From Candidatus Heimdallarchaeota archaeon (GTDB lineage Archaea; Asgardarchaeota; Heimdallarchaeia; JABLTI01), in the NCBI GenBank assembly GCA_030614005.1, contig JAUWKS010000048.1, forward strand, positions 1 to 24,667: a stretch of 24,667 nucleotides of DNA. The letters run 5' to 3'. Position 1 is the first letter of the stretch; every line of letters starts with the position of its first letter. Below, piece after piece: positions 568 to 6,159 of the stretch. The position numbers and the translations under genes are program-made. Under the pieces are notes generated by a model, which was not told where the DNA came from, ran no database searches, and was given only the letters and a program-made list of their open reading frames with translations.

Positions 568-3500
568 ATGTTCATAATTAAACTAAAGTCTAAGTTCTTA
601 TCAAAAAGAGCTTTTATTTTTCTACTTATTACTATTATTATGCTCTTATCAGTTAGAGCTAGGTTTAATAATCAAATCAATTTTGGGCAAGCACATTCTG
701 CTCTCGCAATACCAACGGAAATATTTTCTCTTTGGAACGATACTGCACCAGCAATTAATGGAGACATTATTTTTACTGCAATTGATCTTTCAGGTGAATG
801 GTCGTCTGCAGGAGTGTATAGTATGTTTGATGAGACAAATTCACCTACTGCAAAACTTTTGTTGCAAAATGATGATACGAATCTCTATATTGGACTAGAT
901 ATTAATGAATATCAAGATGAAAATCCAGGAACAAATTGGGGTTGTGCTGTTTATTTAGACAGGGATCATAATGGCCTTTTAACACATGATGATATTACAA
1001 TTCGATTATATGTTAACATTACAAAAGAATATGTTATTTATGAACAATATAATGAAATGAACAAGAACTGGCAGTACGTTGATGATGTTAACCCGGGTGA
1101 GAGTATTCCCGCAATAAACGTTTTAGTTAATACCGCATTTACTTCGTCTTACTTTGAGCAGGCAAATCACAGACAATATGAAATAAAAATCCCTCTAACG
1201 ACATTAAAATGCAATCCAGGTAATGTGACAGGGATTGGTTTAGAAGCATATGATGATTATAATGATTTAGATGGAACGATAACTTGGCCGGGATTTTCAA
1301 GTAGTCCAGCGCAGATTTTTCTCAATGCAGGTGGTTGGGGAGATCTTTGTTTAGGAACAAATACAACTGAGGCAAATTATTTTGCTCAATACGCAATTGA
1401 AGAAAATGCTAACATTAAAACAAACGCTACTGGATACAATAATGGAACATTTATTGCTACAGCAGATATTGATGGTAATGGAGATTTAGAATTAATTGTA
1501 AGTTCCAATAGAACTGTTGTTGGAGATACAAATCTTCTAGCAATTTATGATTACGTTAGCGGTGAATTAGTCCGCATTTGGGCTTCTTGGGATCATCCAA
1601 CACACCAATCCAAAATGTTTGTTGTTCAAGGAATTGCTACCTTTGATTTTGATGCGAATGGAGAAGATGAGCTTTACCTTTGTGGGAATAATTCATCCAT
1701 TTTGCGTTTTACTGATTGGAATTCTACAAGGAAAGACTTCGATACTTCTGAAACAATCATTACTTTTTCCGCTAATTTTAGAGGATTTATTGATATAGGA
1801 GATATAGATAATGATAATGACGCTGAAATTATTGTAACTTATCAGAAAGTTGGAGCAGTTCTCGGAGAAATTATCGTATTAGAATATAATAGCTTATTAG
1901 ATAGTTTTACCAATTCAGGTACTGTTGATCTATCTCTTCTTGGTATTTCATATCACAAAATAAATGACGTGCTAGTTGCTAACATGGATGATGAATCAAA
2001 TAATGAGTTACTGTTTTTATACCAAACTGTTGATAGTGATTCAATAGGTACTAGTAGGTTACACATAGTTGAGGAAGATGGAGGAGACTGGAATGATAAC
2101 TCAGGAGATGATCTCACTTCTGCGACTTCAAGCTCAACAGAAGATGCTTTTGGACACACAATAATTGTAGGCGATGTTGATAATGATGGTGTGAGAGAAA
2201 TAATTATTATTGGTATGAACTATTTGAAAATTTTCGGAAAAAATACTTTTACAGCAGGTCCTCCAATTGAATTACTAATAAATGATGGTAGTTCAGCACC
2301 TCAAATGGGTGGAGGAGCAGTTATTGGTGATATAGATGGAGACTCAAAAAATGAGCTCATTTTGGGATGTAATAATGGTACAGTATTGATTCTTAATGTA
2401 ACAGATGCGGGTAGTGATTCATTATCGTATACCATTGAATGGTCAAGTGACCTAGGTTCGGCCCCTGGAATGAAGGATTCAATGACTTGTTATGATATTG
2501 ACGCAGATAGTGAGAATGAAGTTGTATTCGGAGATAATTTTGGACAAATAATGACTTTTGGTAAAACTGCTGCACCTACAATAACAATAACCAGCCCATC
2601 TACAGGTTCAACGAAAACATCTACTTCAGTTCAAATTGATTGGGATGCTACTGATGATGTAGCTATTCATCATTTTGATGTTTATGTTAATGCTACAACA
2701 TTGGTTGCTAGAGTGGGTGGAAGTCAAATAGGTATCATACTCAGTCTTGCTGAAGGATTAAACAATATTGAAGTATTTACTTTTGATGTAACAGGGAAAA
2801 TTGCTAGCGATACAGTATCCGTGACTGTTTCTCTAGATGCCCCAGAAGTAACTATTTCTGACCCCGCGAATGGTTCTTTTACAAATACCGCTAGTATTTC
2901 AATTAGTTATTCTCATTTTGATCGAAATGGAGATTTTCAAGAATATAATATCTTTAGAAATGGTACTCCTATTGATACAGTTATTGTAGAAACATATGTT
3001 GTTCCATTATTAGCAGATGGAACCTATAACATTACGGTTCAAGCTGTTGATCTTGAAGGACATAAAGGTCAAGATACTATTTTCATAATCAAAGATACAG
3101 TTAATCCAACAATCGTTATTGACTCACCTACTGATGGTTCAGCAGTACGAACAACCACCATTTCCTTGGAATGGACAGCTGATGATAGCAGAAGTGGGAT
3201 TGACTATTTTGAGATTAGAAGAGATGGTATCCTAAATGCTACTACTACTAGTAGTTCACAGATAATTGCTCTGGATATTGATGATAGCTATCTTCTAACT
3301 GTAACAGCATTTGACGTTGCAGGCAATTCCTTTGCTGACTTTGTAAGTATTACTCTAGACACTAAAAGTCCTTTTGTAAATATTACCTCTCCAGAATCAG
3401 GATTAATGACTACTCAACCATCGATTACAGTTCAGTGGGACAGTGTTGATAATATTGGCGGAACAGGTATAGAGTATTCAGAAGTAACTGTTAATGGTGC

Positions 3501-6159: not shown

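Follow-up and report, generated by a model that had tools for sequence, protein, structure and literature searches.

The locus and the predicted protein

The window analyzed here is the complete 24,667-bp contig JAUWKS010000048.1 of a Candidatus Heimdallarchaeota archaeon (assembly GCA_030614005.1; parent genome 3.6 Mb, 90.4% complete). The gene under study is the largest open reading frame (ORF) on this contig, 568–6159 on the plus strand, which starts with ATG, forms a single open frame and encodes 1863 amino acids (aa). A ribosome-binding-like GGAG motif was read from the sequence at 554–557 (+), 10 nt 5′ of the ATG at 568. Based on the frame, its parts and topology cues, the product, designated P0001, is predicted to be a type-I membrane glycoprotein. 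An earlier, sequence-only reading had described this ORF as an integrin-alpha-like receptor with a cytosolic part of 315 aa, and both the frame and a tail of that length were found. A longin-type domain, a linker and a four-helix bundle make up the 315 aa following the transmembrane (TM) helix. Signalling enzyme domains were absent from the Pfam matches to P0001. The protein is a real, conserved and testable new combination of known types of part, the function of which we infer. All parts of the gene described below lie on the plus strand.

The cytosolic tail

A juxtamembrane helix and a longin-type domain, identified by AlphaFold2 (AF2) and structure searches, occupy aa 1548–1690 (5209–5637), with strands and helices spanning aa 1561–1684. 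The tail was modelled from an alignment of 36 tails, yielding a mean predicted local distance difference test score (pLDDT) of 84.6 and a predicted template modelling score (pTM) of 0.51. In this model, the longin-type domain (tail residues 17–140, pLDDT mostly >90) follows the order beta-beta-alpha-beta-beta-beta-alpha-alpha, with strands at tail residues 17–24, 27–33, 69–73, 76–82 and 87–92 and helices at 42–60, 97–120 and 126–140. The domain starts approximately 14 residues past the TM helix; a short juxtamembrane helix carrying an invariant G-W precedes the first strand and two helices follow the core. The central-helix motif L-F-G-G-A-x-x-G...E...G was invariant in 18 sequences.

When the tail model was compared with the PDB using Foldseek, the top 50 matches were all longin or roadblock proteins, at weak E-values (3e-3 to 2e-2). 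Alignment with VIA-align gave Z 11.9 for the VAMP7 longin domain (116 residues, 2.7 Å), 11.3 for MK-D1 Roadblock3 (9jue), 11.1 for the longin domain of a Lokiarchaeal Roadblock-Longin protein (8yqg; 129 residues, 3.4 Å), 10.9 for CPLANE, 10.4 for Sec22, 10.3 for Mon1-Ccz1 and 10.2 for sedlin. Roadblock proteins aligned at Z 10–11.3 over 96–105 residues at 2.1–2.5 Å. The longin alignments span tail residues ~15–144 and the roadblock alignments end at ~115; the former extend over the two helices after the core, in keeping with a longin-type arrangement (layout according to PMC10933270). Almost all of the top 30 matches among the Swiss-Prot AFDB models were longin proteins, including SEC22a/b/c, phytolongins, VAMP714, YKT6, zeta-COP, TRAPPC1/BET5 and AP-4 mu, and two were unnamed Methanocaldococcus jannaschii proteins. 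Across the Foldseek, VIA-align and Swiss-Prot results, the top rows spanning tail residues 13–145 were taken up almost entirely by longin or roadblock proteins. The sequence-only reading had placed a longin fold in aa 1555–1690, in agreement with the modelling of aa ~1561–1684 in longin order and with the best matches being solved longin domains.

Sequence profiles gave a sparser picture. Comparison of the tail profile with the ten Robl_LC7 proteins of the genome using hhalign resulted in a probability of 78% (E 1.8e-5) over 81 core columns. Neither Pfam nor NCBIfam contained a family matching aa 1545–1863, and a profile search of the PDB returned only chance-level matches to designed helical bundles. 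A Pfam search over the 36 family tails yielded no shared family, only scattered chance-level matches such as MMM1 (E 0.013) and a single Intu_longin_1 (E 0.048). The longin profile PF13774 did not match P0001, nor did Robl_LC7 (PF03259) match its tail. A distant relative in the same genome, a 222-aa protein on C36, matched Fuz_longin_1 at E 0.0036, short of the cut-off. We conclude from the modelled fold and the profile–profile score that the tail domain is likely a member of the Roadblock/longin superfamily with longin-type topology, belonging to a branch not covered by Pfam.

The linker that follows (aa 1691–1752, 5638–5823; tail residues ~150–205) is acidic, rich in P, E, Q and T, and disordered according to pLDDT (43–51) and composition, with a net charge of −16. 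The C-terminal four-helix bundle (aa 1753–1863, 5824–6156; tail residues 210–317) was modelled by AF2 at pLDDT 96–98. Candidate families for the bundle (DUF3829, chemoreceptor 4HB sensor domains, PsbQ and others) reached VIA-align Z values of up to 11.8 and were rejected; as these values are below the noise level of the tool for helical bundles (about 13), the bundle was left without a family. Co-folding of two copies of the longin-type domain scored 0.24 against a mark of 0.42, which speaks neither for nor against dimerization.

The ectodomain

The first 45 aa (568–702) were identified by hydropathy as a signal peptide or an uncleaved signal anchor. This segment has a K/R-rich start and a hydrophobic core at aa ~16–30 (hydrophobic window aa ~8–30); an A-H-S that is conserved in homologue alignments comes after the hydrophobic stretch and precedes the mature part. 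A beta-rich N-domain of about 240 aa comes next (aa 46–285, 703–1422), modelled by AF2 as all-beta at pLDDT 50–90. It has no Pfam match in P0001 and no match in a profile search of PDB sequences, and fold searches with the 632-aa model comprising N-domain and propeller returned propellers in all rows and nothing for the N-domain. In a comparison with ESM-Atlas features, clusters containing CBM9_1 came up at 0.83, which is lead level. CBM9_1 was matched by one of 10 N-domain homologues (E 0.21), hhalign of the N-domain with the CBM9_1 protein of the genome itself gave a probability of 0.5%, and PF06452 matched none of the paralogues in this genome. The sequence-only reading had labelled aa 57–262 CBM9/DOMON-like; these searches did not confirm the label, and a CBM9 identity of the N-domain is a weak lead.

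Seven FG-GAP repeats at aa 286–668 (1423–2571) form a predicted seven-blade beta-propeller, as indicated by Pfam, AF2 and VIA-align. Pfam recognized FG-GAP_3 (E 7e-8, four stretches) and FG-GAP (E 3.6e-7, three stretches). The AF2 model of the ectodomain covered aa 41–672 and was built from 15 homologues (mean pLDDT 77.9); it contains 28 propeller strands in seven sets of four at model residues 233–628 (aa 273–668), the first strand being contributed from the N-terminal side. Every blade carries one Ca-type loop (D-x-D-x-[DN]-x-x-x-E type), starting at aa 300, 360, 412, 472, 536, 588 and 643 (nt 1465, 1645, 1801, 1981, 2173, 2329 and 2494). All seven loops quoted in the sequence-only reading were thus located, within the FG-GAP_3/FG-GAP region, and the closure into seven blades that it had proposed is borne out by the model, which aligned with seven-blade propellers at Z about 25–29 over 300–344 residues. 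These included LGI1 EPTP (Z 29.0), BBS2 (28.4), ITFG2 in KICSTOR (28.3) and BBS9 (27.2), as well as integrins alphaM, alpha6, alphaL and alphaIIb (24.8–26.5, 330–343 residues). The closest ESM-Atlas shapes were all FG-GAP clusters, bacterial and archaeal. A seven-blade FG-GAP propeller in P0001 is therefore supported at the level of the model, and in the same modelled structure no likeness to integrin is singled out among seven-blade propellers.

The stalk of approximately 850 aa was matched in Pfam by Big_7 (E 2e-25, 89.7 bits versus a cut-off of 24.1, six stretches) and Glucodextran_B (E 1e-9). With the Pfam matches and a self-built repeat profile, seven tandem Ig-like repeats of ~89 aa were delineated at aa 670–1292 (2575–4443). 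The self-profile found all seven as full units at independent E-values of 5e-25 to 4e-36, and each unit starts with P-x-[IV]-x-I-x-S/D-P. Two divergent Ig-like domains were assigned to aa 1293–1512 (4444–5103) on partial self-profile matches at aa 1368–1400 and 1460–1512; Pfam gave weak Big_13 and PKD-like matches at aa 1476–1505. The earlier count of about nine Ig-like repeats is fair, since seven full units and two divergent partial ones extend up to aa 1512.

Membrane topology and glycosylation

Hydropathy revealed one convincing C-terminal TM helix, aa ~1525–1547 (5140–5208), almost coinciding with the 5146–5211 given previously. A second hydrophobic window (aa 1318–1341) was considered and rejected as a TM segment because it carries E and D and matches, by eye and unaligned, the repeat motif of Ig repeat 8.

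All 12 full-length family members examined keep a positive-inside pattern, with 0–1 K/R among the 15 residues that precede the TM helix and 2–6 among the 15 that follow it. The P0001 ectodomain, which has a net charge of about −158, contains 32 N-x-S/T sequons versus 21.6 expected from shuffling (Poisson P about 0.02), and the tail contains none versus 1.6 expected. Summed over the 12 members, ectodomains hold 348 sequons (227 expected) and tails 18 (16 expected), although the P value of these sums overstates the case as the members are related and hence not independent. An excess over shuffled sequences was seen in every one of the 12 ectodomains; the tails taken together showed none. The charge and sequon distributions agree with the orientation of the sequence-only reading, head out and tail in. 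Its argument that sequons support this topology stands, as they are enriched only in the ectodomain, whereas the clustering before the TM helix that it had reported does not, the sequons being spread over the whole ectodomain.

Conservation and distribution

Relatives were collected by a HMMER scan of the tail over 1.84 billion cluster representatives. Most of the 44 relatives found were C-termini of 1540–1875-aa proteins with N-domain, propeller and Ig stalk, or fragments of such proteins, and about 15 cluster representatives (1540–1875 aa) keep the full-length architecture. Related loci came from metagenome-assembled genomes (MAGs) of Candidatus Heimdallarchaeota/Promethearchaeati and from one MAG labelled Bathyarchaeia; reads carrying the gene originate from marine-sediment and cold-seep metagenomes, and no RNA data set was listed among the sources. 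With a longin-domain profile (E ≤ 1e-15), matches were obtained in all 10 other sampled genomes of the same family, in two to four copies and in frames of ~1750–1920 aa, and in none of the other sampled families of the class. Four genomes of one distant family showed a weaker match to this profile, in proteins of ~765 aa. As no occurrence of the full architecture was found beyond a single Heimdallarchaeia family, the fusion of the FG-GAP and Ig giant with a longin-type domain is late and lineage specific, and not an ancestral design.

The genome encodes four paralogues, on C75 (the P0001 gene), on C103 and as a convergent pair on C68, each of which clusters with a separate set of representatives, so that four paralogous lineages, all with the overall architecture, can be distinguished. 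The C68 paralogues (20086–25611, plus strand, and 25668–31112, minus strand) face each other tail to tail across 56 nt, and the same convergent giant pair is present in four or more further genomes of the family. The minus-strand member finishes with an acidic tail and has no four-helix bundle. The bundle is likewise missing from P0024 and P0030, which together with the C68 minus-strand protein constitute one paralogue lineage.

Among orthologues, identity is highest in the longin-type domain (63–71%), against 55% in the propeller, 50–57% in the N-domain, 31–47% in the Ig repeats, 41–45% in the bundle and 27–32% in the linker. Between paralogues, the bundles share 10–26% identity.

The longin-like module on other proteins

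The profile of the longin part identified 26 ORFs in this genome, where no fewer than 25 proteins have the module, membrane receptors or transporters being frequent among them; the four giants and several TPR proteins are included. Three multi-TM proteins carry the longin-like domain on their C-terminal side, one of them also with a methyltransferase, and in two further proteins the longin-like domain is followed by four TM helices. Outside the family, Asgard glycoproteins of ~760–790 aa share the same succession of TM helix, W, longin-type domain and helical tail under an unrelated ectodomain, and an MFS-like transporter also bears the TM-longin module. With a broader longin-like profile (E ≤ 1e-6), 192 of 200 sampled Asgard genomes matched. 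In the ESM Atlas, the shapes nearest to the longin-type domain belonged to unannotated Asgard proteins (137–145 residues at 2.0–2.4 Å); next, by predicted shape only, came Thermoplasmatota surface proteins, response-regulator fusions and some bacterial OmpA and SH3 proteins. As a cytosolic module, the longin cassette is old and mobile; its fusion with the giant ectodomain is a young invention of one family.

Several of these proteins were inspected individually. In four mid-size longin-like receptors (C64:579–3305, C10:11605–14484, C87:485–4129 and C73:45044–48217; L036, L034, L033 and L035, respectively), a signal peptide is followed by a propeller of the FG-GAP or LVIVD type and by TSP3 Ca repeats; after a single TM helix come a linker of 70–120 aa and a C-terminal longin-like domain. 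Multi-pass proteins in which the longin-like domain is predicted to be cytosolic are P0045 (530 aa, metagenomic), C81:35803–36936, C72:5493–6689 and C34:15365–17161; one of these is MFS-like and one has an S-adenosylmethionine (SAM) methyltransferase after the longin-like domain. By analogy, this layout recalls transporter-linked nutrient sensing. On C9, a Robl_LC7 gene (3929–4189) lies 119 nt upstream of a gene for a protein combining a longin-like domain with a winged helix-turn-helix (wHTH; 4308–5612), with a Ras-family GTPase gene 3 kb away. This was the only tight roadblock/longin-like cluster seen.

Neighboring genes

At the left end of the window, a divergent gene start cut by the contig end (3–239, minus strand) encodes a signal peptide and an FG-GAP/PQQ-like 'DLDKDGDLEILIGS' loop, and its product is predicted from these features to be a second secreted propeller protein beside the giant gene. 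In orthologous loci, an AAA_18-like gene of 188 aa takes its place. Further downstream, a radical-SAM activase gene and a gene for a 787-aa glycyl-radical enzyme (PFL-like/Gly_radical), 2 nt apart, occupy 13336–16526 (+), and this pair is conserved in orthologous loci. A 266-aa leucine-rich-repeat protein is encoded at 16634–17434 (+), adjoining a gene at 17651–18694 (+), whose 347-aa product has a signal-like segment in its interior and, at the C-terminus, a TM helix ending in RKRKK. The gene at 18795–21194 (−) encodes a sequon-rich surface protein of 799 aa, with a signal peptide, two similar repeats of ~110 aa with the motif D-A-G/N-T-G-R-D-A-G, a C-terminal TM helix and, in the cytosol, an acidic tail. 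This is probably another glycosylated envelope protein.

Orthologue loci share LctP, YCII, DegV, DUF362 and the AAA_18-like gene. As a source of a conserved partner this neighborhood was rejected, the shared genes representing ordinary synteny of related genomes.

Comparison with known systems

Integrin alpha chains consist of a seven-blade FG-GAP propeller, Ig-like legs (thigh, calf-1 and calf-2) and a single TM helix; they are obligate heterodimers with a beta chain and have a short tail with a membrane-proximal GFFKR. P0001 resembles them in its seven FG-GAP repeats, closed seven-blade propeller, D-x-D-x-D-type Ca loops, Ig-like stalk and type-I topology with one TM helix. It differs in having Ca-type loops in all seven blades, an extra N-terminal beta-rich domain, a stalk of nine Big_7-type bacterial Ig domains instead of thigh, calf-1 and calf-2, and a folded 315-aa longin and bundle module instead of a short peptide. 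GFFKR is absent from P0001, the sequence after the TM helix being L-R-K-T-T-V-N-L-G-W-K-R-E. Integrin beta (PF00362) gave no match up to E = 1 in a genome that is 90.4% complete; the integrin leg profile PF08441 did not match in this genome either, in a search in which the control genomes were also blank. The sequence-only reading had framed the design as proto-eukaryotic. This is not supported, as P0001 fails the defining features of integrins other than the propeller and the architecture is restricted to one family; similar membrane-proximal domains, by predicted shape only, are present in Thermoplasmatota and bacterial clusters.

With the longin domains of VAMP7/Sec22/Ykt6, TRAPP Bet5/Trs23, AP sigma/mu-N, Mon1-Ccz1, Fuzzy-Inturned and 8yqg, the P0001 domain shares the order of elements, 116–129 residues superposing at 2.7–3.4 Å (Z 11–12). 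Unlike these, it has no Pfam longin match (PF13774, PF19036, PF19031, Sybindin and Clat_adaptor_s were searched), is tethered close behind the membrane-spanning helix in a giant surface protein and possesses its own invariant L-F-G-G-A-x-x-G motif in the central helix. Roadblock/LC7/MglB proteins (MglB, LAMTOR2/3, 9jue and 7f8m) have the same beta-beta-alpha-beta-beta-beta core; their long helix is N-terminal, however, whereas the P0001 helices follow the core. The placing next to a membrane is reminiscent of Ragulator on the lysosome, except that the P0001 domain is covalently fused to its receptor and not recruited by a lipidated scaffold (LAMTOR1).

In the literature, 130 Roadblock/LC7-superfamily Asgard clusters of orthologous genes (asCOGs) have been reported by Liu et al. 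(bioRxiv 10.1101/2020.10.19.343400), together with many narrow-range multidomain fusions of eukaryotic signature proteins (ESPs), including NPRL2-like longin domains joined to signalling domains. P0001 resembles these Asgard ESP fusions as a narrow-range, non-eukaryotic architecture in which a longin-type module is combined with prokaryotic parts. According to PMC9258230, the published version of that study (Nature 2021) lists integrin-repeat ESPs. The sequence-only reading knew of no experimental description of the full architecture; our literature search likewise found no text or experiment on the combination of FG-GAP, Ig, TM, longin and bundle, the published asCOG tables not having been compared.

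Interpretation and alternative explanations

We consider P0001 to be, somewhat more probably than the alternatives taken together, a surface adhesion protein or ligand receptor with a membrane-proximal longin-type domain on which a cytosolic partner can dock. Nine Ig-like domains would form a stalk outside the cell, holding a beta-sandwich head and a seven-blade FG-GAP propeller loaded with Ca2+ a few tens of nm (~40 nm) away from the membrane. Just inside the membrane would sit the longin-type domain, from a pan-Asgard, unannotated Roadblock/longin branch, and this tethered platform may report or organize surface events for a cytosolic partner. The docking-platform reading follows from the longin-type domain being the most conserved part and from the presence of the same TM-longin cassette under many further ectodomains and on transporters. 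The domain is probably dimeric, MglB, Ragulator, TRAPP and Mon1-Ccz1 serving as analogies. As partner, the most probable class consists of the Ras-superfamily GTPases, of which this genome has at least 40 Ras-family matches, and the roadblock/longin proteins, including 10 Robl_LC7 genes. That the partner is specifically a GTPase is possible but on balance unlikely. Slightly more doubtful is the fuller scheme in which the TM-longin cassette would act as a receptor-tethered small-GTPase platform: ligand binding or contact would cluster the receptors and bring the longin domains together as dimers, and these would recruit or regulate a Ras-superfamily GTPase, as a GTPase-activating protein (GAP) or guanine nucleotide exchange factor (GEF). 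Ligand binding, dimerization, the partner and the direction of signalling are points that we infer. The sequence-only reading, in which putative glycan or surface sensing outside the cell is coupled to a putative GTPase-regulating module inside, is supported in part, namely for the longin fold, the closure of the propeller and the orientation.

A number of observations weigh against the docking-platform reading. Longin domains also have roles unrelated to GTPases, in SNARE regulation and as adaptor subunits. Since the longin and roadblock models of Pfam all miss the tail, homology is argued from the fold and one moderate profile–profile score, and a ligand-binding role of the ectodomain would be argued by analogy only. 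GTPase, roadblock and vWA neighbors were absent from this gene and from three paralogue/orthologue loci, and about two of the 26 longin-like ORFs lie within 5 kb of GTPase or roadblock genes, which is, judged by eye, no more than chance. The missing GTPase neighbor is weak evidence, because the same lack of operon linkage has been reported for MK-D1, where, as generally in Asgard archaea, GTPases are found outside operons with roadblock/longin genes (PMC10933270). The same study describes roadblock/longin dimers as platforms for small GTPases.

The main rival explanation, unlikely but to be taken seriously, is that of a passive envelope protein or adhesin, the ectodomain forming a surface coat or sticking to partners or minerals and the tail only anchoring, oligomerizing or positioning it (on a scaffold of the cytoskeleton or the membrane, for instance), with no information being passed. 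Four paralogues per genome and a conserved convergent pair would suit abundant coat components, as would the heavy sequon load and the very acidic ectodomain, and P0001 has no signalling enzyme domain nor its loci a conserved regulatory neighbor. Yet the cytosolic longin-type domain is more conserved than every extracellular part, which is unusual for a mere anchor, and the same cassette occurs on transporters and on multi-TM, TPR and wHTH proteins, none of which are coat proteins.

The other two explanations are less likely. The VIA-align and Swiss-Prot results bear on a self-regulated switch as in Ykt6, VAMP7 and Sec22, in which the longin-type domain would fold back on the C-terminal helices and control membrane remodelling, fusion-type events or sorting, and not a GTPase. 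SNARE longin domains are the best structural matches (VAMP7 at Z 11.9, with Sec22 and Ykt6 also found), but the longin subfamilies lie within about 1–2 Z units of one another. The succession of longin domain, flexible linker and helices is SNARE-like in order, but SNAREs have their TM helix on the other side of the longin domain. Swiss-Prot matches to SEC22a/c and phytolongin do span residues 16 to ~190–313, at root-mean-square deviations of 15–27 Å for these long alignments, and with a pTM of 0.51 no confident packing of longin-type domain and bundle was obtained. Given also that the bundle is missing from one whole paralogue lineage and poorly conserved between paralogues (10–26% identity), such a switch is very unlikely. 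Less probable still, to the point of being scarcely credible, is true homology with integrin alpha, in which P0001 would descend directly from the archaeal line ancestral to the metazoan/unikont chain and work with a beta-like partner. Such an origin would explain the shared layout of seven Ca-loop FG-GAP blades, Ig stalk, single TM helix and cytosolic tail and the integrin alpha headpieces among the structural matches of the propeller (Z 24.8–26.5). Against it, the LGI1 EPTP, BBS2/9 and ITFG2 propellers score equally high or higher, bacteria and archaea commonly possess FG-GAP propellers, and the Big_7 stalk, the blank PF08441 and PF00362 searches of the genome, the missing GFFKR, the 315-aa tail and the limitation to one archaeal family all point elsewhere.

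Implications

To our knowledge, the wiring of the small GTPases and roadblock/longin proteins of Asgard archaea, which number in the dozens, is almost unknown, as their genes are rarely found in operons. The tethered longin-type module provides a defined, soluble bait of ~140 aa for cytosolic partners, and the giant surface protein family offers a shape to be sought in cryo-tomograms of Heimdallarchaeia. Should the GTPase platform prove true, it would represent prokaryotic outside-in signalling built from the parts of eukaryotic Ragulator, TRAPP and Mon1-Ccz1, and the cassette on transporters would be a nutrient 'transceptor' analogous to SLC38A9-Ragulator. If the docking partner is a GTPase, P0001 would provide the first receptor-to-GTPase link in archaea; if it is not, the module would still define a pan-Asgard domain family outside current Pfam.

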